Origin: Escherichia phage vB_EcoM_005
Length of the DNA: 64,000 nt
Strand: one strand, 5' to 3'
Sequence record: MK295203
Each line of letters begins with the position of its first letter. The first letter of the stretch is position 1. This document shows, piece by piece, positions 26,033-61,316 of this stretch. A model generated the notes under the pieces. That model did not search any database, had not been told where the DNA came from, and worked only from the letters and a program-made list of their open reading frames with translations. A program made the translations under genes and the position numbers.

Positions 26033-26354
26033 TTTATCTGATTTAGATAATTTCGTTAAAGATACCGAAGAGGGTCCTAGTGACCCTCGGTATTATGAGA
26101 AATCATTAGATATAATCCGTAAGTCAATGGGTTCTGTTAAGCAGGAAATTATGCTTACTTTACCCGATGGCACTGCTCACATCGTTTATGTGATGAATAT
26201 TGTTATTGAGAAAGATGGAAAAGTGTCGGTTGATTTCGGAACACCTTCCGAAGACCGAAAAGAAGAGCTAGCGCTTCATGTAGAAAAATGTGTTACAATG
26301 CAAATACAAGAAGAACTGGATAAAATTAAATCTAAGAGGTGGTGGAAATGGTAG
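26025..26354 (+). CDS. hypothetical protein at the T4 gene 40 position
   Basis: 109-aa ORF between uvsX and 41; synteny only. Confidence 0.4.
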   Translation: MTDLSDLDNFVKDTEEGPSDPRYYEKSLDIIRKSMGSVKQEIMLTLPDGTAHIVYVMNIVIEKDGKVSVDFGTPSEDRKEELALHVEKCVTMQIQEELDKIKSKRWWKW

Positions 26355-27780
26355 AAACTATTTTGGCTCAACTGCTAGGCAATAGTGATTATTTCACTAA
26401 GGTCTGGCCTTATATGAATGATTCTTATTTTGACCAGGGTCCTGCAAAGACCCTTTTCAAAGAAATTAAAAAACACGTCAATGAATATAATGCAGTGCCT
26501 TCTAAGAACGCATTGAGCATTGCATTAGATAACAGTACGCTTTCAGAAGTTGAACATCAGGGCGCTAAAGAGCTTTTAAGTTCACTGAATGCCGGACCTG
26601 AAGACCAAGAATGGTTGGTTAAAGAGACGGAGAAATACGTTCAGAAAGCAGCGATGTATAATGCAACTTCAAAAATCATTGAAATCCAAACTAATGCCGA
26701 CCTTCCGGTTGAGCAACAAAATAGAAAACTTCCAGGTATTGGTGCTATTCCTGGATATCATGCGTGATGCATTATCGATTTGTTTCGATTCTGAATTAGG
26801 TCATGACTGGATGGATGACTATGAAGAACGATTCAAAAGTTATTCCGATAAAGCACGTAAGGTTCCGTTCCGTCTTAATATTCTGAATAAGATTACCAAG
26901 GGTGGTGCCGAGTTTGGTTACTGAAAACGTATTGTTGGCAGGAACAAACGTAGGTAAGTCTCTTGGCCTGTGTTCATTGGCTGCTGATTACCTTCAATCA
27001 GGTTACGATGTTCTTTATATCTCCATGGAGATGGCAGAGGAAGTATGTGCTAAGCGTATAGATGCCAACCTTCTGGATGTATCGCTGGATGATATCGATG
27101 ATGGTCATGTCTCTTGGCCTGAATATAAAGCTAAGATGGATAAATGGCGTTCAACTGCTACCTTAGGTCGTTTAAAGATTAAACAGTATCCTACTGGTGG
27201 TGCTAATGCCGATACCTTCCGTGCATTATTAAACGAATACAAGCTCAAACAAAACTTTGTGCCGCAGGTCGTTATCGTCGACTACTTGGCCATTTGTGCA
27301 TCGTCTCGTACTAAAGTTTTCTCTGAAAACAGTTACGGATTGATTAAGATGGTAGCCGAAGAACTACGTGGACTGGCAGTAGAGAAGAAATTATTGTTGT
27401 GGACAGCAGCCCAGACTACTCGTGGTGCGAACGTTGCGGCCGAAATCGATATGGCTGATATTGCTGAATCATTTGGTATTGCACATACTGCAGACTTCAT
27501 GTTAGGTGTGGTCGAGACAGAAGAGTTTGCTCAGATGGGTATGCAAATGGTTAAGCAGCTTAAATCTCGTTACGGCGATAAGAGCTACTACAACAAATTT
27601 AAGATTGGCGTTAAGAAAGGAAACCAACGTTGGTATGAAGTTGAAGACGATTCCAACCCAGGCCCGGTGAACACTGTTCGTGAGGCTACAGGTGAGATGA
27701 ATCGTCAAGCCGAGGTCAATCGTCAGACGCGTGTTAATAGAAGTGATTTAGACGATTTAGCAGCATCTATCAAATTTTAA
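26348..27780 (+). CDS. 41: replicative DNA helicase gp41 (DnaB-like), interrupted by two apparent +1 indels
   Basis: three consecutive ORFs in three frames (to 26767, 26589-26924, 26902-27780) together colinear with my recollection of T4 gp41; Walker A GTNVGKS; frame changes near 26754 and 26918. Confidence 0.85.
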
Positions 27781-27800
27781 GGAGCTTCGGCTCCTTTTTT
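27781..27800 (+). terminator. rho-independent terminator
   Basis: GGAGC-TTCG-GCTCC hairpin followed by TTTTTT. Confidence 0.6.
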
Positions 27801-27809
27801 GTTTTAAGG

Positions 27810-27838
27810 GTTTACATCTCCTATAGGCATGATACTAT
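27810..27838 (+). promoter_or_regulatory. T4-type early promoter
   Basis: GTTTAC 27810-27815, 17-nt spacer, TACTAT 27833-27838, AGACCTATCAAC leader. Confidence 0.55.
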
Positions 27839-27862
27839 AGACCTATCAACTTGGAGAACAAA

Positions 27863-28180
27863 ATGAAAACCATCGATTGCAAAGCAGAACATAAAGTGTA
27901 TTACCATGGAAGTTGTAGTGTTGCTAATATCGGTAATATGCTTTGTCCTCCTGAGGAAACAGGAGTTCTGTCTGAAACCGGTCGTAAGAAAAACCTAAAT
28001 CGTGTGTTCTTTACTGAAGATATCGGTTTGGCTAAGATTTATGCAGGACGCGCAGCTCGTTCAGTGGGAGGAGAACCTCGTCTTTATCGTGTAATTGCTC
28101 CGGTAGATGTGGTTTGTTTAAATGATACTAAAGGCGCCACAGTTTATCATGCTGAATGGGCCTTCTGTGAGGAAATCTAA
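27863..28180 (+). CDS. hypothetical protein
   Basis: 105-aa ORF downstream of early promoter. Confidence 0.45.
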   Translation: MKTIDCKAEHKVYYHGSCSVANIGNMLCPPEETGVLSETGRKKNLNRVFFTEDIGLAKIYAGRAARSVGGEPRLYRVIAPVDVVCLNDTKGATVYHAEWAFCEEI

Positions 28181-28375
28181 ATGCCCGAATCAATTAAAGT
28201 AAAATTTGTCGGCCATTTCGCCAACGGTGATACTGCTACCAAAGAAGTTTCAGTACGTGAAAATGATATTGTGTGGGTGGCCACTCAATTCGCTGAAGTC
28301 AATGGCATTCTAGTCAAGGCCTACGTCGACGACGTAGAAGTTTATGAACACGATGCTCGCATTGAGGAAATCTAA
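28181..28375 (+). CDS. hypothetical protein
   Basis: 64-aa ORF. Confidence 0.4.
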   Translation: MPESIKVKFVGHFANGDTATKEVSVRENDIVWVATQFAEVNGILVKAYVDDVEVYEHDARIEEI

Positions 28376-28516
28376 ATGGAAGAATTTGAATGTGTAGTAT
28401 GTGGCTGTTCAGTCTATGAAGACCAAGCGGTATTTGATGCTTGGGATAACGCAACCTGTTTAGACTGTGACGGCGAATTCGAAGAAATTGCCCATAAACA
28501 TGAAGGTGAGGAATAA
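28376..28516 (+). CDS. small zinc-ribbon protein
   Basis: 46 aa with CVVCGC...CLDCDG cysteine pairs. Confidence 0.35.
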   Translation: MEEFECVVCGCSVYEDQAVFDAWDNATCLDCDGEFEEIAHKHEGEE

Positions 28517-28756
28517 ATGAATATTACCTTAATGAAACCAACTCCCAGTTCTTTTTGGAACAAATCTTTTGGTAAGCATAATATGTTTATCCAACGTACT
28601 GTAAGCAACTGGGAACTGGTTCTTTCAGTCGGTCACAACGATTATGAACAAGAATACGTAGAGTTCTTCGAATTTCCTGTGAAGCCTACTAAGCGTCAGA
28701 TTCGTCAGACAAAACGTAAATTCCGTAAAATTTATTTGGAAGATTCGTTAAAATAA
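28517..28756 (+). CDS. hypothetical basic protein
   Basis: 79-aa ORF, ATGA overlap. Confidence 0.4.
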   Translation: MNITLMKPTPSSFWNKSFGKHNMFIQRTVSNWELVLSVGHNDYEQEYVEFFEFPVKPTKRQIRQTKRKFRKIYLEDSLK

Positions 28757-28757
28757 A

Positions 28758-28787
28758 GTTTACAACGGTCTATGGTAGTGATACTAT
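28758..28787 (+). promoter_or_regulatory. T4-type early promoter
   Basis: GTTTAC 28758-28763, TACTAT 28782-28787, AGACCTATCAAC leader, GAGGAG RBS. Confidence 0.55.
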
Positions 28788-28815
28788 AGACCTATCAACT
28801 AACGAGGAGTTAAAA

Positions 28816-29109
28816 ATGAAAAAGTTATTAATCGCAGCAATCCTTACAGTAGCATCATGTGGCACGGCTCCAGTAACTGCCGGATTGGATAAAGACCTTT
28901 GTGAATGGTCTATGACTGCAGACCAAGAATCGGTTGAACATCAGATTTATGCCGATATCATGAACATCACTAAACGCGACCGCCCTGATATGGCTAAAGA
29001 AGTGTCAGACCAATTAGCTTCAGGTGGTGTTATGCAATATAACTATGTTTTGTATTGCGATGCCAATTTCGATAACAAAAATATCGTTAAAGAGGTGACA
29101 GATGAATAA
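28816..29109 (+). CDS. predicted lipoprotein
   Basis: signal peptide with lipobox VASC; 97 aa. Confidence 0.5.
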   Translation: MKKLLIAAILTVASCGTAPVTAGLDKDLCEWSMTADQESVEHQIYADIMNITKRDRPDMAKEVSDQLASGGVMQYNYVLYCDANFDNKNIVKEVTDE

Positions 29110-29542
29110 GATTAACAGAAATTTAGTTATCAAAAAACTTTGTTGTAAAAATCCAAATGCACAAGCATACAGGATGTTTTGGAGCGACGACCACCAATAC
29201 CTGGGTTATTTTCTTGTTGATAGTGATGATAGAATTACAATGGCCCATAAACTTCTTAACAGAGAATTAAACCATTGGCAAGAACTTATTGCGGTGAGGT
29301 CTAAATTATTTTCATGTAATGCAATGCATCAATTGGTTTATTTTTTCGCTGAAGGTATTCCTGACAAGGTTGAGTTTGATGGATTCGAATTTAAAGATAT
29401 CTTCCCGGACAACGAATTGAACGACTGCGTTAATATGGATATCCCTAGCAAGTACATCAAAAATAGTCTGTTGAAAATTCTGGAAGCCCCGGTTTATTCA
29501 ATTGATGACCAAATTTTTAATGCTTTTATGAATCGAGGTTAA
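29102..29542 (+). CDS. hypothetical protein
   Basis: 146-aa ORF. Confidence 0.45.
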   Translation: MNKINRNLVIKKLCCKNPNAQAYRMFWSDDHQYLGYFLVDSDDRITMAHKLLNRELNHWQELIAVRSKLFSCNAMHQLVYFFAEGIPDKVEFDGFEFKDIFPDNELNDCVNMDIPSKYIKNSLLKILEAPVYSIDDQIFNAFMNRG

Positions 29543-29543
29543 T

Positions 29544-29765
29544 ATGTTTGTCTTAACTCAATTCTCTAAAGCAGTGTATAGTTACTCTTGTCAATGGGAA
29601 GTCTTTATCGATTCTCCTTCACCTAAGTACGGTGTTTTTGGACGAGTAACTACTCAAGCTTATGTTGCACGGCCTACTAAGCGTCAGATTCGTAAACTTA
29701 AAAAGGCTCATCGCCAACTGATTAAAAGAAGGGAACAATATGAGTGCAATGTGTACGGGCTCTAA
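29544..29765 (+). CDS. hypothetical protein
   Basis: 73-aa ORF. Confidence 0.4.
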   Translation: MFVLTQFSKAVYSYSCQWEVFIDSPSPKYGVFGRVTTQAYVARPTKRQIRKLKKAHRQLIKRREQYECNVYGL

Positions 29766-29931
29766 GATTTCTGTATTCGAGTTATTCGAAGAATATGAAA
29801 TCGTATCAAAAGACCAAGAAGCTATCCATATTATTGCTGGTGATGGTGTGACTTGGATTATTCCACTGTACCACGAAGATACCTATGAAGTCACTGATGC
29901 AAATGGTGATAAAGCTATTTTCGTAATATAA
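29740..29931 (+). CDS. hypothetical protein
   Basis: 63-aa ORF. Confidence 0.4.
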   Translation: MSAMCTGSKISVFELFEEYEIVSKDQEAIHIIAGDGVTWIIPLYHEDTYEVTDANGDKAIFVI

Positions 29932-29947
29932 ATAAGGCCAGGAGCCT

Positions 29948-30109
29948 ATGAAATCTTTTAAAGAAGTTATGAACGAAGATATGGTCGCAGGCGATGCAGG
30001 TGGTAATCCTACTGCTATTGCCTCCGGAACTACCTCAGGCGCAGTCGTCAACAAAGGGCCTGAACAAATCCCATCTAAAAAGCGTAAAGAAAAATCCGAA
30101 AACGAATGA
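29948..30109 (+). CDS. hypothetical protein
   Basis: 53-aa ORF; same frame as the downstream endonuclease remnant, separated by a TGA. Confidence 0.3.
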   Translation: MKSFKEVMNEDMVAGDAGGNPTAIASGTTSGAVVNKGPEQIPSKKRKEKSENE

Positions 30110-30145
30110 TATAATGGCTCTATTAATTTAGAGTATGATAAGTAC

Positions 30146-30676
30146 ATGGGTTCAGGAGGGCCTTTAAGTAGGGCAAAGGAAAAATACGGGCTGGAAAATT
30201 TCGAAAGAGAAATTCTAGAGTTTTTCCCTAATGAAGACCTAATGAACGAAGCTGAGGCAGCTATAGTAACTAAAGAATTTATTAAAAGACCCGATGTTTA
30301 TAATGCTGTGCCGGGCGGCAGAAGTTTTAGAGTAGGCCCGACGGAAAATTATGATTCTAAACGGCATTCAGAAGTCCAGATAAAAAGCTGGGATAATCCT
30401 GAAAAAAGGGCCAAGCAAGCCAAAACTATAAAAGCTATCGCATGGAAAGAATGGGATAATTTAGAGGAAGTAAAAATCCGACATAAAGAATCCTGCAGTA
30501 AAGCACAAAGAAAACATAAAGCCTGGAAAGATTATAATGTATTAAAAGAGATTTGGGTTAAATTAGGAAAACCTGGATACGGTAGGTTTAATAATGAATT
30601 AATTAAGCTTGGTTACGAAAAAAGAAATTACCAAAGAATGGTAGATGCTTTTAATAAAGAGGAAGAACTAGTATGA
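30146..30676 (+). pseudogene. GIY-YIG homing endonuclease remnant (N-terminally truncated)
   Basis: begins inside the catalytic domain (KYMGSGG...KEKYGLENFEREILE); NUMOD-like linker; C-terminal module shared with the two HNH ORFs downstream. Confidence 0.5.
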
Positions 30677-30927
30677 GTTTTGTAGACAGAGAATTTGCTT
30701 TAAGAGCTTTTCAAACACTGCCAAAATTTAGACAAGTTACCGGAAGCGATTTTAAGCTTAACGCAAGGTGCCCTATTTGTGGTGACTCACAGAAAGACGA
30801 ACATAAAGCTCGTTTTTGGGCTTATCCTGTGAATGATGGTGGCATTATGTTGCACTGCTTCAATTGCGATGCTAGTTTAGGAATTAAGAAGTATCTATAC
30901 GAATACGAGCCTGATTTATATCGTTAA
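30673..30927 (+). CDS. 61: DNA primase gp61, N-terminal zinc-binding domain as a separate ORF
   Basis: FKLNARCPICGDSQKDEHKARFW...HCFNC matches my recollection of the T4 gp61 zinc ribbon; ORF stops after EPDLYR. Confidence 0.8.
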   Translation: MSFVDREFALRAFQTLPKFRQVTGSDFKLNARCPICGDSQKDEHKARFWAYPVNDGGIMLHCFNCDASLGIKKYLYEYEPDLYR

Positions 30928-30940
30928 GATGCCTGTCATC

Positions 30941-31144
30941 GAAAAGCTTAATTTCTGTGAACGATTAGATAGAATGCCAAACGACCATCCTATTATCAAA
31001 TATGTGACACTACGTTGCATTCCTGAAAACAAATGGAATCGTGAAAAGCTTAATTTCTGTGAACGATTAGATAGAATGCCAAAGGACCATCCTATTATCA
31101 AATATGTAACACTACGTTGCATTCCTGAAAACAAATGGAATCGC
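30941..31144. repeat. tandem duplication, 2 x 102 bp (in frame) within primase
   Basis: two copies differing at 3 positions. Confidence 0.8.
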
Positions 31145-31496
31145 TTATGGTTTACTAAAGAATGGCCGGCATTGGTGAACTCTGTCAATCCAGGGACCTA
31201 TTCTAAATTGAAATGCCTGAGCCTCGTTTGGTTATTCCAATTTTCAATAAGAATAAACAAATTGAAAGTTTTCAGGGTCGAGCCTTACGTAAAGATGCTC
31301 CACAAAAATATATTACAATACGTTGTGGTTTACTAAAGAATGGCCGGCATTAGTTAACTCTGTGAATCCAGGGACCTATTCTAAAGAAATGCCTGAACCT
31401 CGTTTGGTTATTCCAATTTTCAATAAGAATAAACAAATTGAAAGTTTTCAGGGTCGAGCCTTACGTAAAGATGCTCCACAAAAATATATTACAATA
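31145..31496. repeat. tandem duplication, 2 x about 178 bp within primase
   Basis: copies nearly identical; copy 1 carries a small indel and the period is not a multiple of 3. Confidence 0.8.
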
Positions 31497-31592
31497 AGTT
31501 GGTGTGGGTAATGGAAGGCCCTATTGACTCTTTGTTTGTTCCGAATGCAATAGCAATTACTGGCGGGTCGTTGGACTTGGCTATGGTTCCAT

Positions 31593-31690
31593 GTAAAGAA
31601 ACTCGTGCCTGGGTAATGGACAATGAACCCCGCCATCCGTTGTAAAGAAACACGTGCCTGGGTAATGGACAATGAACCCCGCCATCCTGA
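31593..31690. repeat. tandem duplication, 2 x 49 bp within primase
   Basis: GTAAAGAAAC(T/A)CGTGCCTGGGTAATGGACAATGAACCCCGCCATCC repeated. Confidence 0.8.
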
Positions 31691-31719
31691 CACAATTAAG
31701 CGTATGCAACGATTAGTTG

Positions 31720-32370
31720 ATGCTGGCGAAAGGGTTCTATTCTGGGACAAGAGGAAAATTAAGAGGTTCTAAGCGGTCTTTATCATATTATACGGAAGAA
31801 CACCATGTTATACCTAGATGTATGAATGGTTCTGATGATAAAAACAATTTAGTTGCTTTATTGCCAAGAGAACACTTTGTAGCTCATAGGCTTTTAACAA
31901 AAATATATCCCGAAGTAAAAGGTCTACATTATGCTGTTAATTTAATGAGATATAATAAAGGAGTTAAATTAACTAGTAGAACTATAGCCACGTTAAGAGA
32001 AAATAACGCTAAAGCATTTTCAGGAAAAAATAACCCGATGTTTGGTAAACCTTCCTGGATTAGAGGGATGAAAACTCCTGAAGAAACTAAAGCCAAAATG
32101 CGCCTGGCTCATAAAGATAAAATTATATCTGATGAAGCCAAGGCCAATATGAGTAAAGCTAGAAAAGGAAGATTTAGTGGTAAAGATTCCCCTAGATATG
32201 GTTTGCCAAATCCTAGGCGTGGAGAAATATGGAATAGTTACGATATGCTTTATGAATTATGGGTTTACAATAATAAACCTAAACGCACCAAATTTAATAA
32301 AATAGCTGTTGATAATGGATATCCTGATATTTGTTATCGACGAATGATAGAAAACTTTAATAGGAAATAA
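31720..32370 (+). CDS. HNH homing endonuclease
   Basis: EEHHVIPRCMNGSDDKNNLVALLPREHFVAH (HNH motif); NUMOD-like repeats; first ATG lies inside the last codons of the primase fragment in another frame. Confidence 0.65.
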   Translation: MLAKGFYSGTRGKLRGSKRSLSYYTEEHHVIPRCMNGSDDKNNLVALLPREHFVAHRLLTKIYPEVKGLHYAVNLMRYNKGVKLTSRTIATLRENNAKAFSGKNNPMFGKPSWIRGMKTPEETKAKMRLAHKDKIISDEAKANMSKARKGRFSGKDSPRYGLPNPRRGEIWNSYDMLYELWVYNNKPKRTKFNKIAVDNGYPDICYRRMIENFNRK

Positions 32371-32374
32371 TATA

Positions 32375-32512
32375 ATGGCATTTTTTAACGAATGTAGTGG
32401 TTTGATTTCTGGTGTTGATAAAGCTGAGGAAGCTTATTTTAATGCTCTGATTCACGAAGATAATTTATTTATTCGCTTTAATCTAACAGTTTATAATTAT
32501 CTAACTTATTAA
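32375..32512 (+). pseudogene. dCTPase gp56 N-terminal fragment (diverged partial duplicate)
   Basis: MAFFNECSGLISGVDKAEEAYFNALIHED then out-of-family tail; 52 bp identical to the start of the next copy. Confidence 0.5.
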
Positions 32513-32535
32513 TGAATTGAAAAAGGAAAAATATA

Positions 32536-32955
32536 ATGGCACACTTTAACGAATGCGCAAACCTGATTGCTGGTGTTGATAAAGCTGAGGAAGCTTATTT
32601 TAATGCTCTGATTCACGAAGATAAGGACCCTCTGCAGGTTATGTTGCGTGAACAGAAAGATTGTATTGACGATGAATTCCGTGAACTTCTGACTTCCCTC
32701 GGTGAAATGTCTAAAGGTGAGAAAGATGCATCTGCTGTATGGAAAAAATGGAAAGCCCGTTACCCGGAAGCACAAGCCAAACCTATTTCAGAAATGTCTC
32801 CTGAAGACCAGCTTGAAATTAAATTTGAACTCATTGATATTATGCACTTCGTATTCAATATGGCTATTGGCTTGAATATGTCGGCTGAAGAAATGTTTAA
32901 ACTTTATTACCTGAAAAATAAACACAACTTTGAACGCCAGGACAATGGATATTAA
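32536..32955 (+). CDS. 56: dCTP pyrophosphatase gp56 (MazG-like), copy 1
   Basis: 139 aa; MAHFNECA..., KDCIDDEFRELLTSLGEMS, EDQLEIKFELIDIMHF, KLYYLKNKHNF match my recollection of T4 gp56; lacks about 32 internal residues relative to T4. Confidence 0.8.
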   Translation: MAHFNECANLIAGVDKAEEAYFNALIHEDKDPLQVMLREQKDCIDDEFRELLTSLGEMSKGEKDASAVWKKWKARYPEAQAKPISEMSPEDQLEIKFELIDIMHFVFNMAIGLNMSAEEMFKLYYLKNKHNFERQDNGY

Positions 32956-33379
32956 TTTCAAATCCGTTCTTAAAGAAAAGTTCCCGCAATGGGAACTTTT
33001 AGAAGATAAACCTGAATATAACCGTCATCCTGATGACTTGGCTACTGCAGGTGAAGTTGTTGATTGGTTGCGCAATCAGAAAGATTATATTGATGATGAA
33101 TTCCGCGAACTTCTGACTTCTCTTGGTGGCATGAGCAATGGCGAAAAAGATGCGAGCGCTGTATGGAAGCCTTGGAAAGCTCAACATGCTGAACGTCGTG
33201 AAACCCTGATTAACGATTTGTCTCCTGAAGACCAGCTCGAAATTAAATTCGAAATGATTGATATTCTGCACTTTGTTCTGAATATGTTCCAAGGTCTTGG
33301 ACTGACTGCTGAAGAAATCTTTAAACTGTATTACCTGAAAAATAAACACAACTTTGAACGCCAGGACAATGGATATTAA
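32945..33379 (+). CDS. 56: dCTP pyrophosphatase gp56 (MazG-like), copy 2 with a different N-terminus
   Basis: 144 aa; carries the HPDDLATAGEVVDWLRNQKDYIDDEF segment missing from copy 1 but lacks the MAHFNEC N-terminus; last 90 nt identical to copy 1. Confidence 0.7.
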   Translation: MDINFKSVLKEKFPQWELLEDKPEYNRHPDDLATAGEVVDWLRNQKDYIDDEFRELLTSLGGMSNGEKDASAVWKPWKAQHAERRETLINDLSPEDQLEIKFEMIDILHFVLNMFQGLGLTAEEIFKLYYLKNKHNFERQDNGY

Positions 33380-33412
33380 TTTCAAATCCGTTCTTAAAGA
33401 AAAGTTCCCGCA

Positions 33413-34210
33413 ATGGGAACTTTTAGAGGTCATGATTACTTAAAAATTATAGATAAGTATAAACTAAACGTCCATACCAAATCTAAAACTGAAGCTCATC
33501 ATATACTTCCGAAGTGTGCATTTCCAGAATACAGCGATTTTAAAATCTCTCCTTGGAATAGGGTGTATCTTCCTATATACCAACACATATATGTTCATTA
33601 TCTTTTGTGCTCAACTAAGGTGTCGGGTTTGCTTAATGCATTCCAGAGAATGACACTAACAAATAGTGCCCAGTTTAAGAAGCTTTCTGATTTAGAGAAA
33701 GACCTTACTATTAAGTTATGGGCCGATAAACGTGGGGAGTGGATAGAGCAAGACATTCTCCGTAAAAGAAAATCCTTTATGTATTCTAATTTTGATTTCT
33801 GGTATAATGACTGGATTTCGCGGGATATGCCTCGCTATCGAAGATATTGGGGAGTTTTGGTTGAAGAAAATAATCCGGAAGTTTTAGGTACCCACAAAAA
33901 TAGTTTATTGACAGTGGTAAAAGATTTTTGTTTGAGATACGCAGAAGAACATAATTTATCTGAAGAAGAAGTTTTGAGTCTTCAAAAATTAAAACAGTCT
34001 TCAGAAAAAGCTTTAAAAGATAAAGGAAAAACTTTAAGTAAAACTGCTAGAGGCAATCAACTCAAATGGAATTATGAAACTGAGCTTAGGAATTTATGGA
34101 TTGCTAATAACAAACCAAAATATGTGAATTTCAGAAAGCTAGTGGTTAGCTTAGGCTACCCGGATGAAAATTATATAAACATGATAAAGAGGTTTGAAAA
34201 TGGGTTCTGA
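33413..34210 (+). CDS. HNH homing endonuclease
   Basis: TEAHHILPKCAFPEYSD...NRVYLP...HIYVH (HNH motif); start codon lies within a 92-bp repeat derived from gene 56. Confidence 0.65.
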   Translation: MGTFRGHDYLKIIDKYKLNVHTKSKTEAHHILPKCAFPEYSDFKISPWNRVYLPIYQHIYVHYLLCSTKVSGLLNAFQRMTLTNSAQFKKLSDLEKDLTIKLWADKRGEWIEQDILRKRKSFMYSNFDFWYNDWISRDMPRYRRYWGVLVEENNPEVLGTHKNSLLTVVKDFCLRYAEEHNLSEEEVLSLQKLKQSSEKALKDKGKTLSKTARGNQLKWNYETELRNLWIANNKPKYVNFRKLVVSLGYPDENYINMIKRFENGF

Positions 34211-34316
34211 GATGTTGCTTTGGGCCATAGTCTTCCTTTTATTCTTAATTGGGTTGGGGATTTATAGAATTACTGGCCTATTAGAACGACAGTTTAAAGA
34301 TGGCCAGTAATTAAGT

Positions 34317-34324
34317 TATAAATA
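34317..34324 (+). promoter_or_regulatory. T4 late promoter (TATAAATA)
   Basis: exact TATAAATA 32 nt upstream of the soc start. Confidence 0.55.
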
Positions 34325-34355
34325 CACCTGTAATTAAACAACAAAGGAGTTAATT

Positions 34356-34589: not shown

Positions 34590-34595
34590 TTATAA

Positions 34596-34618: not shown

Positions 34619-34628
34619 GGTTTTAAGG

Positions 34629-37445: not shown

Positions 37446-37514
37446 ACCACCCGGTTTAATTGAAAGGCAAAGTCCTTGATTCATTATACCGTCGAAAATT
37501 TAAAGCAAAAAAGT

Positions 37515-37543
37515 GTTTACTTTATCAAGCAACGTGATACTAT
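37515..37543 (+). promoter_or_regulatory. T4-type early promoter
   Basis: GTTTAC 37515-37520, TACTAT 37538-37543, AGACCTATCAAC leader. Confidence 0.55.
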
Positions 37544-37582
37544 AGACCTATCAACTAATCGTCCGTAAGATGAGAAAAAATT

Positions 37583-50024: not shown

Positions 50025-50114
50025 GTAGCAAAACGTGGTGCCTTATTTGGATGGCCTGTATCCCAGTGATCTGTGTATGTTTTAGTTTATTGTTGTGGAA
50101 ATTGGCATAAATCA

Positions 50115-50143
50115 GTGTACATCTCCATTAATCATGATACTAT
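50115..50143 (+). promoter_or_regulatory. early promoter (GTGTAC -35 variant)
   Basis: GTGTAC 50115-50120, 17-nt spacer, TACTAT 50138-50143, AGACCTATCAAC leader. Confidence 0.45.
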
Positions 50144-50169
50144 AGACCTATCAACTAATGGAGATGATT

Positions 50170-53024: not shown

Positions 53025-53043
53025 GGGTTTAGTGCAAAAAAGT

Positions 53044-53072
53044 GTTTACATCTGCTTTAAACATGATACTAT
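53044..53072 (+). promoter_or_regulatory. T4-type early promoter
   Basis: GTTTAC 53044-53049, 17-nt spacer, TACTAT 53067-53072, AGACCTATCAA leader. Confidence 0.55.
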
Positions 53073-53110
53073 AGACCTATCAAATAAATGAACTGAAACG
53101 GAGATACAAA

Positions 53111-53743
53111 ATGTCTAAAATTACTTATATCATCAAAGCTTCTGAAGACGTCCTGAATGAAAAAACTGCTTCGATCTTAGTACATATCATCAAGCATAAC
53201 TTCATCACTTCAGGCGAAGTCCGTGAAGCCCTGAGTGAGCAATTTAGTGCAGCAGTGGTTAACTCTAACATCGGTGTATTGATTAAGAAAGGATTCATCG
53301 AAAAATCTGGTGACGGTTTAGTGGCTACAGGTGAAGCAATGGACCTGGTTCAAAAAGCTGCTGACCTGTTCGCTTCTGAAAATGCTCCAGAGATGTTGGA
53401 AAAACGTAAAACGCGTAGTTCACGTGGTGTTACTCCTGAAATGGTAACACTGGCTGATGAAGTTAAAGCTTTATTAGAAGACCGTATCGAGATTCGTGAA
53501 ATTGCTGAAAACCGTAGCAACCTTGAAGTTCGATTCGCTAAACGTACCAATGGTATTCGTCAAATTGAAGTCCGTCGTGATGGCATGATGCGCATCTTCG
53601 GTTATAATATGACCGATAAAGAAAAACAAGTGTTTACTTCCTTGAATCTTGATGTTAAGATTAAGACCGGTGGTAAGAATACTTATATCGACTTCCAAAA
53701 CGTATCATCTGAAGTTATCAAAATCGTAACCAACGCAATTTAA
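53111..53743 (+). CDS. motA: middle-transcription activator MotA
   Basis: 210 aa; MSK.TYIIKAS.DVLNEKTA, VVNSNIGVLIKKG..EKSGDGL, KRTNGIR, MRIFGY match my recollection of T4 MotA. Confidence 0.9.
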   Translation: MSKITYIIKASEDVLNEKTASILVHIIKHNFITSGEVREALSEQFSAAVVNSNIGVLIKKGFIEKSGDGLVATGEAMDLVQKAADLFASENAPEMLEKRKTRSSRGVTPEMVTLADEVKALLEDRIEIREIAENRSNLEVRFAKRTNGIRQIEVRRDGMMRIFGYNMTDKEKQVFTSLNLDVKIKTGGKNTYIDFQNVSSEVIKIVTNAI

Positions 53744-53761
53744 CTGACTGAGGAAATTATT

Positions 53762-53977
53762 ATGAACAAGCTGAATATTGTTAATGAACTTCGTCGTTGT
53801 GCAGAACCTACTCAAGAAGGTTGGGACATTTGGTACCATGGCGCTTATCTCGGCACTATTGTTAAGATTAAAGCAGGTAAATACTTAATCATCCGTGGTG
53901 GTTCTGAAGCTTCTATGGGAATTCGCAAGAACTTCATGGCGGCAATCAGCACCTTTGTCTTTATGGCAGCGTATTAA
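53762..53977 (+). CDS. hypothetical protein
   Basis: 71-aa ORF. Confidence 0.4.
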   Translation: MNKLNIVNELRRCAEPTQEGWDIWYHGAYLGTIVKIKAGKYLIIRGGSEASMGIRKNFMAAISTFVFMAAY

Positions 53978-53989
53978 AGGATGGTTCAA

Positions 53990-54328
53990 ATGATTCCGAT
54001 GGAACTTAACTGGGACGGTGAAGGTCATTCCCTTAAATTGATTGAAGAACAACGTAATGATTGGGACGAGCGTGTAGCTTTGGTAAGCGGTATTAAGAAA
54101 ATTTACCAACTCGATCTCCAGATTGATAACGTTTATCTTGAATTTGGTATGCAGTTATTACGATTTCTTGAGATTATTTTTATTGAAAAGGTAAATATAA
54201 CTTCGTATGGCGAGGGCCAAACAGTTAATATTAAATTATCATCCTATTATAAAGGCGAGTTAATTGAAACTGCCACCAAAATTCAAGAATTTGCTAAAGA
54301 TAACGGCCATAAGGTGATTTTCAAATGA
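53990..54328 (+). CDS. hypothetical protein
   Basis: 112-aa ORF with AAGGA RBS. Confidence 0.4.
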
Positions 54329-54813
54329 ATCCATTAAAAGGTAAAGCATTATCCTTTAAAGACCGTATGGCTTTATTAGATAAAGCTCTTTCTCGTGAGA
54401 CGCCTGAAAGTCTAGCAGCTAAATTACGGGCATATGGTGATTACACCGAATATACAGAAGAGGATGTTTTAGAAGAGGTTCCTGAAATCTGTTGGCAAAT
54501 CGCTCATTGGAACAATAATGAAAAATATCAGCGCAGGATTGTGTGCGCAGCCAACCGCTTTAAGTTAAAAGACGGTGGGACTCTGGTTATTCCTGGCGCT
54601 CGTCATTATTCTAAAGATATGGCTGAAGTTCTCGACCAGGTAAGTGATAAACTTGTATCAGACCATGTTTGTGGTGATGACCAAGGATTTATTGACCAAT
54701 ATTCAAACTATTGGACTCGCGAAGAAGCAATGATTATTGCGACTTATGCTAATCAAGTTCGTATTGAACGTGGTGGCAGTGAAAAAGAACTTTACTCTGA
54801 GGACCTTTACTAA
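54325..54813 (+). CDS. hypothetical protein, tandem paralogue A
   Basis: 162 aa; [31 protein letters not shown]...[20 protein letters not shown]. Confidence 0.5.
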
Positions 54814-54907
54814 TGAATCTTAAACAACTCCAGATTGATGCAATCGAAGCCCATATTAATCATGTTAAACGTCTTACCCTCTGGCAACGTGTTAAAGGAT
54901 GGTTCAA

Positions 54908-55396
54908 ATGAATCCATTAAAAGGTAAAGAATTATCCTTTAAACACCGTTTGGCTTTATTAGATAAAGCTCTTTCTCGTGAGACGCCTGAAAGTCTAGCA
55001 GCTAAATTACAGGCCTATGGTGATTACACCGAATATACGGAAGAGGATGTTCTAAAAGAAGTCCCTGAAATCTGTTGGCAAGTGGCCCATTGGTGTGAAG
55101 ACCAAAAATTCCAGCGTCGAATTGTATGTGCTGCAAACCGTTTTAAGTTAAAAGATGGTGGAACTCTGGTTATTCCTGCGACACGTCATTACTCTAAAGA
55201 TATGGGTGCGGTTATCAAGGCAGTTGAAGATAAATTGGTAACACGATTTGTCTGTGATGATGACCAAGGCTTTGTCGACCAATATGGTAATTATTGGACT
55301 CGTGAAGAAGCAATGATAATTGCAACATATGCTAATCAGGTTCGTATTGAACGTGGTGGTAGTGAAAAAGAACTTTACTCTGAGGACCTTTACTAA
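54908..55396 (+). CDS. hypothetical protein, tandem paralogue B
   Basis: 163 aa; same domain as 54325-54813, mosaic of identical and diverged blocks. Confidence 0.5.
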
Positions 55397-55417
55397 TGAA
55401 TCTTAAACAACTCCAGA

Positions 55418-55678
55418 TTGATGCAATCGAAGCCCATATTAATCATGTTAAACGCACTGAATGCCACGGTGGAAGATAATTGGGGAACTTATGTAAACCA
55501 ACCGGCTTGGGATGCTTTAGACCACGAATATATAAAGAATATTAGTTCTAAGACAATCCACGGGAATATGGAAGGGTTGAAGCCATTCCTACGTGATATG
55601 TATATTGCAACTAATAAAGAAATTATCAGCTCTCTTGAATATCAATTAAGGAAATTACGTGAACAATCTGGTAGCTAA
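55418..55678 (+). CDS. hypothetical protein (second copy at 56899-57111)
   Basis: 86-aa ORF; C-terminal 70 residues repeated nearly identically 1.4 kb downstream. Confidence 0.4.
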   Translation: MMQSKPILIMLNALNATVEDNWGTYVNQPAWDALDHEYIKNISSKTIHGNMEGLKPFLRDMYIATNKEIISSLEYQLRKLREQSGS

Positions 55679-55800
55679 GCACGACTCATAAGGACAAGAA
55701 GAAAAACTTTAAAGAGTCTAAACGTAAACAGAAACATAAGGGTAAAGGCTATGAGTCATAACTTAGAGAATACCGTAACAGGCATGCGTACACGGGACAT

Positions 55801-55829
55801 GTTTACAATCCCTAAGGATATGTTAGTAT
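55801..55829 (+). promoter_or_regulatory. T4-type early promoter (copy 1)
   Basis: GTTTAC 55801-55806, 17-nt spacer, TAGTAT 55824-55829. Confidence 0.5.
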
Positions 55830-55870
55830 AGCCCTATCAGATAATGACGTACTGAATTGAAGAGAATATT

Positions 55871-56005
55871 ATGACTAAAATTGAAATCGTTTCCGAAATT
55901 GCCACTATTGTTTCCATTTTGATTAAAACGGATTGTGAAGACATCATGCAACGTCGTGATGAGTTTATGAACATGTTTACAATCCCTAAGGATATGTTAG
56001 TATAG
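55871..56005 (+). pseudogene. asiA 5' duplicate, truncated at the repeat junction
   Basis: MTKIEIVSEIATIVSILIKTDCEDIMQRRDEF then reads into the repeated promoter sequence and stops. Confidence 0.5.
55975..56003 (+). promoter_or_regulatory. T4-type early promoter (copy 2)
   Basis: identical to the 55801-55829 promoter. Confidence 0.5.
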
Positions 56006-56044
56006 CCCTATCAGATAATGACGTACTGAATTGAAGAGAATATT

Positions 56045-56320
56045 ATGACTAAAATTGAAATTGTTTCCGAAATTGCTACTATTGTTTCCATTTTGATTAA
56101 AACGGATTGTGAAGACATCATGCAACGTCGTGATGAGTTTATTGCCTTTTTGAATGAGTTGGGTATTCGTAATGAACATGGAAAGGAACTTAATGGTTTG
56201 TCTTATAACAAATTATTTAAGTCTTTAACTGAAGATGAACGTGACACTCTTATTGAGCAATTTAATGAAGGATATGAAGATATACACCGTTATTTAATGA
56301 TGTATACCTCCAATTTCTAA
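56045..56320 (+). CDS. asiA: anti-sigma-70 factor AsiA
   Basis: 91 aa; TIVSILIK...FIAFLNE.G..HEG..LN..S..K....LTE...TLIEQFNEGYE..HRYL.MYT matches my recollection of T4 AsiA. Confidence 0.85.
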   Translation: MTKIEIVSEIATIVSILIKTDCEDIMQRRDEFIAFLNELGIRNEHGKELNGLSYNKLFKSLTEDERDTLIEQFNEGYEDIHRYLMMYTSNF

Positions 56321-56643
56321 CGTGTTCGACCTAATGTCCTTCCGGCTTGACCGCACATAGACGAAAGTCTAGGAAATCCTAAATCCGGTTTGGCGCCTTT
56401 TTGAATGAGTTAGGTATTCGTAATGAACATGGAAAGGAACTTAATGGTTTGTCTTATAACAAATTATTTAAGTCTTTATCTGAAGATGAGCGTGAAACTC
56501 TTATTGAGCAATTTAATGAAGGATATGAAGATATACACCGTTACTTAATGATGTATACCTCCAATTTCTAACGTGTTCGACCTAATGTCCTGCCCGGCTT
56601 GACCACACATAGACGAAAGTCTAGGAAATCCTAAATCCGGTTT
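56144..56643. repeat. tandem duplication, 2 x about 250 bp (asiA 3' half plus the convergent holin 3' end)
   Basis: copy 1 56144-56392, copy 2 56395-56643, about 97% identical. Confidence 0.8.
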
Positions 56644-56907
56644 GATATCATACCAGTACAACGATATCGAGCCGGCGTAGACGTTATCCAAATTAAAAAA
56701 CGGGCATGAAAACATATACGTGAATTGTGTTTTCTTCTTTGTAGGAAGGAATACAGTTTCAGTACTTGATTCAAAGATATCATACCAGTACAACGATATC
56801 GAGCCGGAGTAGACGTTATCCAAATTAAAAAACGGGCATGAAAACATATACGTGAATTGTGTTTTCTTCTTTGTAGGAAGGAATACAGTTTCGATGTCAT
56901 GGTGGAA
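56644..56907. repeat. tandem duplication, 2 x 132 bp (in frame, 44 codons of holin)
   Basis: copies differ at one position. Confidence 0.8.
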
Positions 56908-57111
56908 GACAACTGGGGAACTTATGTCAACCAACCGGCTTGGGATGCCTTAGACCACGAATATATAAAGAATATTAGTTCTAAGACAATCCATGGTAAT
57001 ATGGAAGGGTTGAAGCCGTTCCTACGTGATATGTATATTGCAACTAATAAAGAAATTATCAGCTCTCTTGAATATCAATTAAGGAAATTACGTGAACAAT
57101 CTGGTAGCTAA
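56899..57111 (+). CDS. duplicate copy of the 55418-55678 ORF, embedded within the holin region
   Basis: 70-aa ORF about 93% identical at DNA level to 55469-55678. Confidence 0.35.
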   Translation: MVEDNWGTYVNQPAWDALDHEYIKNISSKTIHGNMEGLKPFLRDMYIATNKEIISSLEYQLRKLREQSGS

Positions 57112-57133
57112 GCACGAGGGTACTTGATTCAAA

Positions 57134-57339
57134 ATAGTTCCCGTTAACTCCCGCCATATATTCTACTGACGTTTTGTCAATTGGAAACCCTCCCGTATTT
57201 TTTGCGTCTACCGTTTCCGGTAATTTACCCTCGTAGATAGTTCCCGTTAACTCCCGCCATATATTCTATTGACGTTTTGTCAATTGGAAACCCTCCCGTG
57301 TTTTTTGCGTCTACCGTTTCCGGTAATTTACCCTCGTAG
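57134..57339. repeat. tandem duplication, 2 x 103 bp within holin
   Basis: copies differ at 2-3 positions; period not a multiple of 3. Confidence 0.8.
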
Positions 57340-57343
57340 GCCA

Positions 57344-57461
57344 CCATATCCACAAAATAATTCATGTTGGTTGGTCTAAAAGAATATATTGCTGTGAAGG
57401 AGCAACCATATCCACAAAATAATTCATGTTGGTTGGTCTAAAAGAATATATTGCTGTGAAG
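57344..57461. repeat. tandem duplication, 2 x about 62 bp within holin
   Basis: 56 bp identical in both copies; creates the stop ending the N-terminal holin ORF. Confidence 0.8.
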
Positions 57462-57763
57462 TCTGCGCCTGAAGAAGAATGCACTATTCGGAGCTGCTCG
57501 ATAGCCGCAATTTTAAATCTATTGTCCTGGTCTTGTCTAATCATTTCAGTATAAGAGGCATAAGTTGTCTCTTTATAAAAGTTTAGAATATACTCGCCTT
57601 TATACCAAACCAATGCCATAAAGAACAATAATATCACGACTAGGACCCGGGAAAAAACTACTTTCCCGGAAGAAGTATCTTTAAAAATTCTATCAAGAAG
57701 TCCAAAAAGTAGGTCTGATAATGATATTCCTACTTTTGGTTCCATACTTTTCTCCTTTAAAGA

Positions 57764-57771
57764 TATTTATA
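57764..57771 (-). promoter_or_regulatory. T4 late promoter (TATAAATA) for holin
   Basis: minus-strand TATAAATA followed by AAGGAG RBS and the holin ATG. Confidence 0.55.
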
Positions 57772-57787
57772 ATTTAATACTTTCGTA

Positions 57788-58561
57788 TTATAACCAAGAG
57801 CCGTAGATAGTGCCTGTAGCGCCCCATGAAGGAGAACTTCCGAATACCGCTCTACCAGGAGCACCACCACCCGACCTGGATAAGTTATTACCCCATCCAT
57901 TGCCACCAGCGCCTCCAGCATCACCGCCATTGCCACCGCCAAATTGGCTTGTATTACCACCGCCACCTGGACCATCATAACTAGCATTGCCGCCTGGCCA
58001 ATTAACACCACCGCCGCCGAGACCAAATGGTCGACCGCCTCCACCACCTGCTGTAGAATTTGCAGGCCAACTATTCTGTAATGATACGGCACCACCGCCA
58101 CCACCACCGGAGGCTATCACACCATAATTCCAAATGCGAAGTCGTCCACCAATATCATTTTGGATTACGTCACCACCATTAGTGCCTGGGCTTCCATTTA
58201 CTGTACCGTTGCCACCTCGGCCCCACATATGAACACCACCATGAATATTCAAAGTAACATATTCGTTAGGGGTATCACCGTACATAAAGAACAATGGAAC
58301 ATCTTTAGTATATGATACTAAGTTGCCTGTGATATTAAACACTATAGGAGCACCACCGGCTTCAAAACAACGGTCACGAAACCATTGACCGTTAAAGTTA
58401 TGGTCTGCGCCAAGGGTATGAATAACCTCAACAGAACGGCCTATCATATTACTCATCCAAAACGGAGCGCCCATTCTCAATCGCTGGGCGGCGCCGCCCA
58501 TCCAATTTTGTCCTGTATTAACTACTGCAGACCATCCTACCCACGGTCCTTCAACTGCCAT
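57788..58561 (-). CDS. 38: tail-fibre adhesin gp38 (T2-type, glycine-rich)
   Basis: 257 aa with multiple polyglycine stretches (GGGGGG, GGGGG) typical of T2-like gp38 receptor-recognition adhesins; directly downstream of 37. Confidence 0.8.
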
Positions 58562-58573
58562 ATAAACCTCCAA

Positions 58574-58587
58574 GGGGCCGAAGCCCC
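58574..58587 (-). other. GC-rich hairpin between 37 and 38
   Basis: GGGGC-TTCG-GCCCC on the minus strand, no U-tract, immediately before the gp38 RBS. Confidence 0.3.
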
Positions 58588-58592
58588 TCTTA

Positions 58593-61316
58593 TTATTTTA
58601 ACAATGATTTAATTAATGCTTTAAGTTCTTCAATCTCTGATTTCAATTCTGCTATTTCTGCAGTGTGCTCATTGATTGCAGCCGTATTTAAACCAATTAC
58701 ACCGTTATAGTTTAAACGAAGTAAAGCTTCACCATTGGGGTCGCCTTCAACCAATTCAGGTAAAATAGCTTGAACTTCTTGAGCAATTAAACCAGCGTTA
58801 GGTTCCCATTTCTGATTACCTTCTTCGTCAGTTCCAGCGTTTCTGCATATAAGTGTAACCGTTAATTTTAGAAAGCTTCTGGGAAGCATTTTCAAATTTA
58901 ACAAGGTCTTTTTTAACACGAATATCAGAACGGACATAAACATCTCGAACATACGTAGAATAGGCATCGCTTTGTTGGACTAAATGGCCAAAAGAAATAA
59001 TAGCCCTTCCTGTTTCAGTCCACAAAGCACCATGGGTATCCCAAAGACCTTCTATTGAACATCGCAACACCTTGTGGAGATAAAATTAACCTCGCCATTA
59101 GGGTTAATATTAATACCGCCTTGGGATTGGAAGCTCCAGAAGGCTAAACCGTTATCAGCACCACCATTACCTACATACCAGTTATCAACGCCACCTTTTT
59201 TACCCTTAACATAACCTGCTTCATCTGCTGGATAATCAATAACAACAGCATCCGAGTTGGTTTTAAGAGTTAAGCGGCCGGTCATCGTGTCGCCTTCTTT
59301 AGAAACACGAGTAGCAATGGCATCGCGAATATTAGTTACGTCGCCTGCTGAAGTAAATGTTTTCCAGATATCAGAGAAAATATTACCATTTCGGGCAATA
59401 GTAGCTTCACCACCACCGATCTGTACGTTATCCGGGAAGTTAACTGTACCATCAGCATTAAATCTTGAGGTATGACCTCCGGTCCCGTCTTCTTTAAGAT
59501 GGTGTAAAACAAAAGTACCAGATTCTATTTCAGTACCTAAAGACCAAACAGCTTTTCCTTGTAAGAATTTTTGCTTAACGATAGGATAATATTTACTTAC
59601 AGCGTCATCATCAATTTCTTGGAAAACAGGAGCGGCTTGTGCATATTGAATATCATAACCACCTGCACCTGCACCATGTCCACTGAATTTAATATAACCG
59701 TTTGCCGCAAAAGAAGCATAACTCAAATCTAGGTCAGGGCTTTCTTCTGAACGGCGGAAAATAGCACCGTAGTCATCGTTCCAAATTCTAAGGGCATTGA
59801 CAGCATTACCAGCAATAGTGCCAGAGGCGTTAACTTCTTTACCGACGTTGATGCTTTCGTTTACATTCATGCCACCATTTAAATGGGCTTCGACGTTATT
59901 ATCAGTCTTACGCTGAATATAATGCATCCAACCAACGTCATCAGATATTTCCATTACGTTTTTGCGGTCACCGGCGACATTAGTAAAGGTGTTACCCCAA
60001 ACGTTGATAGTCATGTTATCAACTGAACTATTTCCTGTAGTATTTCCTCTGAACATCAGAGTAGATGCATTGTTGCGGCCGTCAATATTAACCGAACCAC
60101 CAACAACATCAATATTACCAGGAGTAACTAACAAACCACCGTGAGTATTAACGTTTGTCGTGCCCTTACCACGGAAATAGTGATGATAATTTCCACCTTG
60201 ATAATAACCTAAAAGAGTTTGACCGTCGCCATACGCGTTATTATCATGATAAGTGACAACCGTCGCCAAAGCATAGTTTTCCGACGGAGGAGTGGTTAAA
60301 TCGGTACCGTTTACAGAATAACCCATAACCATTTTTCTAAGACTGGTGGTTTCTGCCGGGCCGTTCAGGAAAGTTCTTGTTCCGTTGTTTACATTAAAGA
60401 AATATCCGTCTTGGTACCATTGTAAGCCGGTATCATTATCGCCAAGAGCAATTGAAGCTGTTCCTAATTCAGAATATCCTTTAGAACCGTTCGGAAGACC
60501 GACCGACATGGAATGACCAGCTTTCAATCCACCAGACCATGTAAATGACCAAAGGTAGGCGTCTAATCCATCGCCTGCATACCAGGTTATCCCATCATTG
60601 TCTTTAACTTCATGGAATATACCTGCTCCTACAGCATTTCGCATAACACGAAGGTGGTTAATAGCCGTTTCACTTTCTGCCAATGGGCTATTATCGGCCA
60701 TTGAATAGATATCATAATCGCCAGCCTTCTTCCCGTTTGTAATAACTTTATCGGTCAGAATTTGTGGAGACGAAATAGATTTCCATGCTGATACTTCGGG
60801 CGAAGTAAATAGGCCGCTGCCTGAAAATGCATAAGTGCTTTCGCTACCAGCGGCGTAGTCTTGAACCCTGATATTAACTACCTGAGTTGTCAAACCTGCA
60901 TTATTAGGAGAAAAGATAATACCACGTTCACGTGATGCACCGTCAAAGAATCTCAAATGAGAAGTTGAAGCACTCTTAGAAATAAGTTCTCCGCCTTCAG
61001 TCATTATCTGACCTGCAGCAATAATATCACGAGTTACACGAGCAATACCGGTTAAATTAAAATCACCTGTTTGGGTAAAGGTACCATTTAGGGTATAATC
61101 ACCGGTTTGATTGTAGTTACCGTTATGAATAACGTTTCCGTCGATATTACCACCTTTAGCAAAGCCAAGGTCGATGATGGCACCGGTATCGTCTTTAGTA
61201 AAAAGTAATCGGTCCTTTAAGTTAATAGCCAGTTCGCCTTCAGCCAACTGGGCCGGTGTTGGACGTACACCGGCCACTTTACTTCTTTTAAATTGGATTT
61301 GCTTTAAAGTAGCCAT
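58593..61316 (-). CDS. 37: long tail fibre distal subunit gp37 with C-terminal S74-type intramolecular chaperone domain, two apparent frameshifts near the C-terminus
   Basis: N-terminus [17 protein letters not shown]...[13 protein letters not shown] matches my recollection of T4 gp37; main ORF 59052-61316; chaperone domain (RSDIRVKKD autocleavage-type motif, [17 protein letters not shown]) continues in two other frames (58828-59070, 58593-58967). Confidence 0.8.

Follow-up and report, generated by a model that had tools for sequence, protein, structure and literature searches.

Interrupted and shortened genes in the genome record of Escherichia phage vB_EcoM_005 as probable errors of assembly or finishing

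Gene content of the window and its public record

A stretch of 64,000 nucleotides (nt) from the genome of Escherichia phage vB_EcoM_005 (the window; positions within it carry the prefix w) was compared with the genomes of related phages, and genes needed for phage growth, among them 41, 43, 46, t and 37, were found to be broken or shortened. These interruptions are very probably errors of assembly or finishing and not features of a viable phage. Lesions were called by comparison with phages vB_EcoM-E33 (hereafter E33), Bp7 and QL01, and also with IME08, UPEC01, WG01 or DK-13 where the site was covered by these genomes.

The window belongs to a T4-like myovirus of the genus Dhakavirus (JS98/IME08/Bp7/QL01 group). 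The early genes lie on the plus strand in the order nrdC ... 47, 46, 45, 44, 62, regA, 43, uvsX, 40, 41, 61, mobE, 56, dda, 39, rIIA, rIIB, 52, motA ... asiA, and genes t, 38, 37, 36, 35 and 34 are on the minus strand. Identity to the best public phage records over long stretches is 93–95%. Away from the lesions, the encoded proteins are mostly 97–100% identical to those of relatives (reference E33), indicating that the underlying divergence is natural and mostly synonymous.

In an exact-protein cluster look-up, the products of rIIB, motB, 38, 36, 35 and motA were exact matches to annotated vB_EcoM_005 proteins (GenBank AZV01xxx, RefSeq YP_0101006xx). By contrast, a 40-nt probe from gene 38 had no match in the viral_contigs collection, contig look-ups with the exact gp43 and gp38 proteins were empty, the record is absent from the 'phages' collection, and the phage-specific proteins had no match in Logan, ENA or any other source derived from reads. 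Eight open reading frames (ORFs) that bear lesions were also identical to annotated vB_EcoM_005 proteins, namely gp39 (615 amino acids, aa), gp43 (870 aa), rIIA (670 aa), the first fragment of gp41 (139 aa, AZV01074.1), gp52 (395 aa), dexA (139 aa), a gp44 fusion (478 aa) and the N-terminal ORF of gp37 (754 aa, AZV01135.1), and each of these is on record from a single contig only. The lesions of the window therefore come from the public record itself and are no later addition. At 155,101 bp, the vB_EcoM_005 record is shorter than its relatives (165–173 kb), and as deletions and duplications roughly cancel within the window, large losses must lie elsewhere in the record. No other isolate is listed under the species Dhakavirus ecom005. 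A literature search found no paper describing the phage, and a single paper that uses its TifA homologue.

Missing segments of one recurring length

Exactly 99 nt were absent at 18 sites in the window relative to E33, Bp7 and QL01, and the relatives compared, four to six in number (E33, Bp7, QL01, IME08, UPEC01 and WG01), all carry the missing sequence. These and the other deletions in this part of the analysis are as follows.

After w1440, w2782, w3351, w4562 and w5818: 99-nt deletions
After w12296 and w12774, plus strand: 99-nt deletions in gene 46
After w16915, w24503, w35708, w42376 and w51626: 99-nt deletions
w19485..19486, plus strand: 99-nt deletion in gene 43
After w32644: 99-nt deletion in gene 56
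After w44940: 99-nt deletion at the end of gene 39
After w46089 and w46748: 99-nt deletions in rIIA
After w59737: 99-nt deletion in gene 37
After w53958 and w55794: deletions of nearly this length (98 nt and 94 nt, respectively)
w15001, plus strand: about 112 nt missing relative to Bp7, the sole reference with the upstream ORF
w14531..15967, plus strand: 478-aa ORF in which the upstream ORF is fused to gp44 (319–330 aa in relatives)
w38787..38788, plus strand: 127-nt deletion in dda, a frameshift that leaves aa 1–58 and aa 102–443 in different frames
w40156..40157, plus strand: 255-nt in-frame deletion in dexA (139 aa instead of 224)
w52848..52849, plus strand: 152-nt deletion in gene 52, truncating gp52 (395 aa instead of 442–459)

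The 99-nt deletion sites are both coding and intergenic and are otherwise unrelated, and no microhomology was found at the ends of these deletions. We know of no biological process that repeats a single length at unrelated sites; one length recurring in this way is the signature of a program and not of biology.

As 99 nt equals 33 codons, the reading frames stay open, and the long genes therefore looked intact from the sequence alone. A first-pass annotation of the window, made in this way, had listed 43, 46, uvsX, 39 and rIIA as intact; only uvsX proved to be normal, and the other four carry 99-nt deletions. The window gp43 is 870 aa long compared with 903 aa in the Dhakavirus gp43 proteins among the matches listed. 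It aligns to the solved RB69 polymerase at residues 1–796 and again from about residue 830, hence about 33 structured residues (~797–829) are absent. The missing 99 nt of gene 43 are carried by 6/6 of the records listed out of 47 matching ones, which align in two pieces spanning 299 nt.

The product of gene 46 is short by 66 aa, and gp39, which has lost its stop codon, is 615 aa instead of 605 aa. The window rIIA protein is 670 aa instead of 736 aa, and a pairwise alignment revealed two clean 33-aa gaps with 95% identity elsewhere. Its homologues among the matches listed, other than the window's own, are 725–744 aa long. A search of 5.8 billion proteins found no intact but otherwise identical rIIA, the closest being the general Dhakavirus cluster.

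The same first-pass annotation had confined the lesions to w26348–59070, but they begin at w1440. Its list omitted the 18 deletions of 99 nt, which form the largest and most diagnostic class, the deletions in dda, dexA, 52 and gene 61, and a 583-nt duplication at arn.3b. Its advice that sequence quality be checked before any biological interpretation is warranted by the lesions catalogued here.

Two small genes of E33, Bp7 and QL01 are missing entirely from the window, namely gene 46.1 (~204 nt) at w11656–11660 and the small ORF QL01_81 (~158 nt) at w3505–3522. Their absence may be a natural difference in gene content and not a lesion.

Tandem duplications and interrupted reading frames

Near-identical tandem duplications, already reported in the first-pass annotation, were present in gene 61 (w30941–31687), gene 56 (w32375–33427) and asiA/t (w55797–57461), with Tandem Repeats Finder (TRF) scores of 185–946. 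The duplicated segments are short, 47–583 nt, and each is doubled once. Outside gene 56, which is considered separately below, the affected features are as follows.

w30673..31751, plus strand: remnant of gene 61 (primase)
w30924, w31497 and w31751/2: deletions in gene 61 of about 83 nt, 54 nt and 438 nt, the last removing the C-terminus
w30941–31041/31043–31143, w31145–31322/31323–31498 and w31592–31638/31641–31687: tandem duplications in gene 61
w54289..55455, plus strand: 583-nt tandem duplication of arn.3b and the start of arn.2
w55797..57461: asiA/t duplication series, comprising w55797–55968/55971–56142, w56144–56394/56395–56645, w56644–56760/56776–56892, w57134–57236/57237–57339 and w57340–57399/57402–57461
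w56045–56320: the one intact copy of asiA; a second, partial copy has an additional G at w56592
~w56320..57745, minus strand: holin gene t, with no single ORF
w56894..57117: misplaced 224-nt copy of the arn.2 region, inside t

Within each duplication the two copies differ at positions that vary naturally among Dhakaviruses, and they resemble different genotypes. In the 177-nt duplication in gene 61, the first copy is like E33 and the second like Bp7/IME08. The first copy of the arn.3b segment is 97.8% identical to Bp7 and 86.5% to E33, whereas the second is 96.6% identical to E33 and 86.3% to Bp7, with only 87% identity between the two copies. Differences between duplicate copies number about 36 in total, and about half of them are alleles found in E33, Bp7 or IME08, arranged in linked blocks. 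As the copies match different known genotypes, the record combines sequence from at least two Dhakavirus genotypes, in agreement with one of the two earlier proposals for the duplications, assembly of a heterogeneous population.

At asiA/t, five consecutive segments are doubled and abut one another (AA'BB'CC'DD'EE'), and gene 61 has this pattern too. In E33 coordinates, the path of w55797–57771 runs from 55753–55924 back to 55751–56174, back to 55926–56308, back to 56174–56291, through a foreign block (55306–55529), on to 56291–56407, back to 56306–56468, and back to 56408 and onward. Duplications of about 62, 103, 132 and 251 nt, together with the foreign 224-nt piece, thereby break up the holin gene. 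This piece originates 1.4 kb upstream and is 100% identical to QL01, vB_EcoM_FB, PSD9 and LQ5, whereas the arn.2 copy in its proper place (w55461–55684) is only 96.0% identical to these phages. The asiA/t duplication junction that was tested is shared by no listed record.

A repeated intergenic motif, GTTTACA..N..TGATACTATAGACCTATCAACT (families D5 and D6), which resembles the T4 early-promoter consensus, was found upstream of early genes at w27800–27862, 28770–28800, 37505–37567, 50105–50167, 53034–53096, 55812–55842 and 55986–56016. The last two copies are a single promoter doubled by the asiA duplication.

The lesions of genes 41 and 37 are as follows.

w26348..27780, plus strand: gene 41 (replicative helicase), split into three frames by two +1 insertions
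w26752 and w26918: the insertions in gene 41, a T in CC[T]GG and a T to TT change in GG[T]TAC
w58596..61316, minus strand: gene 37 (distal tail fibre), split into ORFs of 754, 80 and 124 aa
w58837 and w59086: +1 insertions in gene 37, in the contexts CCA[G]CG and AAAA[T]TAA, the latter a T to TT change
w59053–59070 and w59737: about 482 nt and 99 nt, respectively, missing from gene 37

Gene 41 is uninterrupted in E33, Bp7, IME08 and QL01, and gene 37 is uninterrupted in UPEC01 and WG01. The earlier observation that 41, t and 37 cannot be translated as single ORFs therefore stands, the causes being +1 insertions in 41, duplications and a foreign piece in t, and the combined lesions of 37. Six +1 insertions are present in the 64 kb, at w26752, w26918, w55455, w56592, w58837 and w59086 (contexts CC_GG, GG_TAC, CG_AC, CT_GC, CA_CG and AAAA_TAA). 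The insertion at w55455 is an extra C at the end of the 583-nt duplication that shifts the frame of arn.2. Paired 1-nt indels in gp55, modA and motB were attributed to alignment effects of clustered natural substitutions; gp55, the only one of the three checked directly, aligns as a protein without a gap.

Programmed frameshifting or translational bypass was rejected for these genes, as the shift sites are not conserved and genes 41 and 37 are uninterrupted in relatives. Splitting by a homing endonuclease was also rejected, since no endonuclease ORF is present at the breaks in 41, dda, t or 37.

The gene 38 product (adhesin; w57791–58561, minus strand), encoded next to gene 37, is 96% identical to gp38 of UPEC01, a Gaprivervirus, and clusters with gp38 of the RB51/RB68 type, while its identity to gp38 of E33 and WG01 is only 64–66%. 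This comparison suggests an exchange of the receptor-binding module between genera, a form of natural mosaicism that is common.

Origin and meaning of the lesions

The junctions were examined for traces of how they were formed. Additional non-templated bases, 1–3 in number (T, CGT, GT, GC, G, G and G), were found at 7 of the 10 duplication joins. At 11 of 21 deletion junctions the window departs from E33 in the first 1–3 bases of the 3′ side (plus strand), whereas on the 5′ side three bases match E33 at every junction; the background mismatch rate is ~5%. Alignments to Bp7 and QL01 also end 1–3 nt early at several of the scarred junctions. This one-sided scar, common to deletions and duplications, indicates that both are wrong joins of separately derived pieces, and the isolated +1 insertions are plausibly joins with zero offset. 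The division of the lesions into two independent classes, proposed in the first-pass annotation, is thus probably wrong.

From these comparisons we infer that the faults arose during the assembly or finishing of a sample containing at least two related phages. Pieces would have been joined end to end at wrong offsets, so that a forward skip would leave a deletion, in most cases exactly 99 nt long, a step back would leave a tandem duplication, and a zero offset plus a junk base might leave a +1 insertion. At least two related Dhakavirus genotypes, present through a mixed lysate or cross-contamination, would have supplied the pieces, and overlapping pieces would then appear as two 'copies' that are in fact different alleles. 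The constant size of 99 nt suggests that software was responsible. De Bruijn contigs overlap by a fixed k at graph branches, and fixed-length trimming of contig ends before concatenation could cause every join to lose a constant number of bases. In T4 genetics, genes 41, 43, 46, t and 37 are needed for plaque formation. As the phage name implies a cultured, plaque-forming myovirus, the presence of broken essential genes supports an artefact.

Several observations weigh against this explanation. The artefact is deduced from comparison of sequences, and the exact length of 99 nt is not accounted for by assembly error. The sequence is good away from the lesions, which is unusual for a generally poor assembly. 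Genotype switching at the deletion junctions was not enriched in a permutation test with E33/Bp7 alleles (p=0.45), and joins between contigs of different genotypes were rejected as the source of the 99-nt deletions because allele switching was no commoner than at random positions. No excess of polymorphic sites was found at the deletion ends or at any fixed offset from them in four reference genomes. The dropping of both arms of a single-nucleotide polymorphism bubble in a k=99 de Bruijn graph was rejected, as the predicted enrichment of variants was not seen, though this test is weak because the genotypes in the sample are unknown. The deletions follow no 99- or 100-nt grid, and the dropping of fixed-width file lines was rejected, since spacings of 577 and 758 nt in E33 are not multiples of 99 or 100. 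The gene 56 duplication, flanked on either side by a homing-endonuclease gene, might also conceivably be genuine.

The 99-nt deletions could alternatively have been introduced after assembly, by scripted editing or file handling, and be unrelated to the duplications. A constant length is typical of software, and the genotype does not switch at the deletion junctions, nor is there any sign there of an assembly-graph branch point. However, the deletions are off any fixed grid, unlike dropped file lines, the one-sided scar of 1–3 bases is common to deletions and duplication joins, and deletions of 94–482 nt occur too. A separate origin of this kind is rather doubtful.

A real rearrangement can be imagined only at the gene 56 locus. 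No complete gene 56 is left in the window, and the pieces that remain resemble three genotypes (E33, QL01 and DK-13). These pieces and the endonuclease genes of the window are as follows.

w32375..33427, plus strand: gene 56 in four overlapping pieces
w32375–32461: piece 1, aa 1–29, a 100% match to E33
w32466–32646: piece 2, QL01-like upstream region and aa 1–37, followed by the 99-nt deletion at w32644
w32645–33007: piece 3, DK-13-like 3′ part (92%)
w33003–33367: piece 4, QL01-like 3′ part (98%), running into a homing-endonuclease ORF
w9635–10390: homing-endonuclease-like ORF upstream of gene 47, where QL01 has an HNH gene
w30146–30676: mobE-like ORF upstream of gene 61
w31822–32367: mobE, with a protein 100% identical to E33 mobE
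w33413–34210: endonuclease ORF downstream of gene 56, a position also seen in DK-13 and T4-type phages

The duplication clusters in 61 and 56 are both located in an endonuclease-rich region that varies between strains, and gene 61 shares only 76% identity with relatives over its first ~250 nt, a pattern like that of a co-conversion tract.

Invasion by a homing endonuclease could have left a partial duplication of its target gene, making the gene 56 locus alone a real feature. Gene 56 is flanked by mobE and the second endonuclease ORF, its copies become more alike towards the endonuclease (79% to 97% identity), resembling a gradient of co-conversion, and the arrangement of gene 56 and endonuclease is also known from DK-13 and T4-type phages. 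However, this locus has a 99-nt deletion and a duplicated N-terminal piece as well, its pieces match three different genotypes, and no record in the collection searched covers even 80% of the locus in one place. A real rearrangement confined to gene 56 is thus unlikely.

Plain base-calling error, such as 454 or Ion Torrent homopolymer miscalls, would make the frameshifts in 41 and 37 a class of their own. These frameshifts are indeed single-base insertions, and at two of the six sites in the window (w26918 and w59086) the inserted base duplicates its neighbour. However, the other four are not beside the same base, none of the six is within a run of three or more identical bases, and all are gains with no single-base losses. 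The homopolymer changes described for 41 and 37 in the first-pass annotation were likewise not borne out, as 0/4 of the insertions in these two genes are in a run of at least three of the inserted base. There are only six insertions in 64 kb, no other uncompensated single-base indel was found in coding sequence in the window, one insertion (w55455) lies at the end of a duplication, and fillers of 1–3 nt are typical of bad joins. Base-calling error is therefore an improbable cause.

It is very unlikely that a minority of the rearrangements, with gene 56 and the 583-nt arn.3b duplication as candidates, are real recombination products of co-infecting Dhakaviruses. If they were, these duplications would capture an intermediate of endonuclease-driven allele exchange.

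Least probable, and barely credible, is that the lesions as a whole are real and belong to a heterogeneous or partly defective stock, for instance of co-infecting Dhakavirus recombinants kept going by complementation: tandem duplications and segmental amplifications do form in T4-type phages (PMC10853763), and the copies carry natural alleles, as expected from unequal crossing-over of two co-infecting phages, but eighteen deletions of exactly 99 nt cannot stem from recombination, and junk bases mark the joins of five doubled segments that directly follow one another, t contains a 224-nt piece displaced by 1.4 kb, several growth-essential genes are hit at once, and neither the gene 43 deletion nor the tested asiA/t junction is in any listed record, the lesion-bearing proteins each coming from a single contig. 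The biological ALTERNATIVES, a heterogeneous or defective population, cannot explain the 99-nt length, the serial duplications, the junk bases and the loss of multiple genes.

An error of assembly or finishing has features in common with chimeric mis-assembly of a mixed sample, namely lesions confined to a single record, allelic copies, a misplaced fragment, joins with junk bases and a recurring loss of fixed length. However, the usual signatures of such mis-assembly are collapsed repeats or overlaps of k-mer length, whereas the fixed unit here is a 99-nt deletion, which could not be tied to a known behaviour of an assembler. Bp7 (NC_019500) is another low-quality Dhakavirus record, with a split gene 46 and a split motA annotated, but it has sequence present at every 99-nt site, and its defects are of another kind and far fewer. 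The Bp7 annotation has gene 46 in two coding sequences and motA in two, with arn.3 and rIIA.1 also split, hence Bp7 is also to be used with care.

Real interruptions of genes in T4-type phages include homing-endonuclease splits and the split of T4 gene 39/60, with translational bypassing. Homing-endonuclease genes adjoin 61 and 56 in the window; however, real splits are conserved in a lineage and have functional halves, whereas no endonuclease is present where 41, t, 37 and dda are broken, and these genes are uninterrupted in relatives. Genuine amplifications, under selection, consist of entire genes in identical copies. The duplications of the window, as tandem repeats in a T-even genome, are comparable to the segmental amplification of dmd–tifA in T4 that was selected by toxIN (PMC10853763), but their segments are of 47–583 nt, doubled once, gene-destroying (61, t and 56) and carry foreign alleles. 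The window has one tifA homologue, which is intact.

The feature described here is very probably an artefact of one public record and of low biological interest, and the biological content of the window is that of an ordinary T4-like phage of the JS98/IME08 type. Sequences from vB_EcoM_005 have nevertheless already been used in the design of experiments, an example being the TifA homologue (PMC10853763). In that study the vB_EcoM_005 tifA was synthesised and tested as part of a panel of additional homologues from E. coli and Pectobacterium phages, which neutralised no ToxN (PMC10853763). As the tifA (61.4) homologue in the window (w28517–28756) is intact and 96–99% identical to those of QL01, IME08 and Bp7, the lesions of the record do not explain this failure to neutralise ToxN.

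The record is worth flagging because it is a RefSeq genome and the only isolate listed for Dhakavirus ecom005. The truncated or fused forms of gp43, rIIA, gp39, gp44, gp52 and gp37 have their own UniProt entries, and mining the record for gene content, pseudogenes, tail-fibre variants or 'novel' fusion proteins would mislead. Missing, duplicated and scrambled segments also lower the measured similarity between genomes, and could thus affect the demarcation of species.

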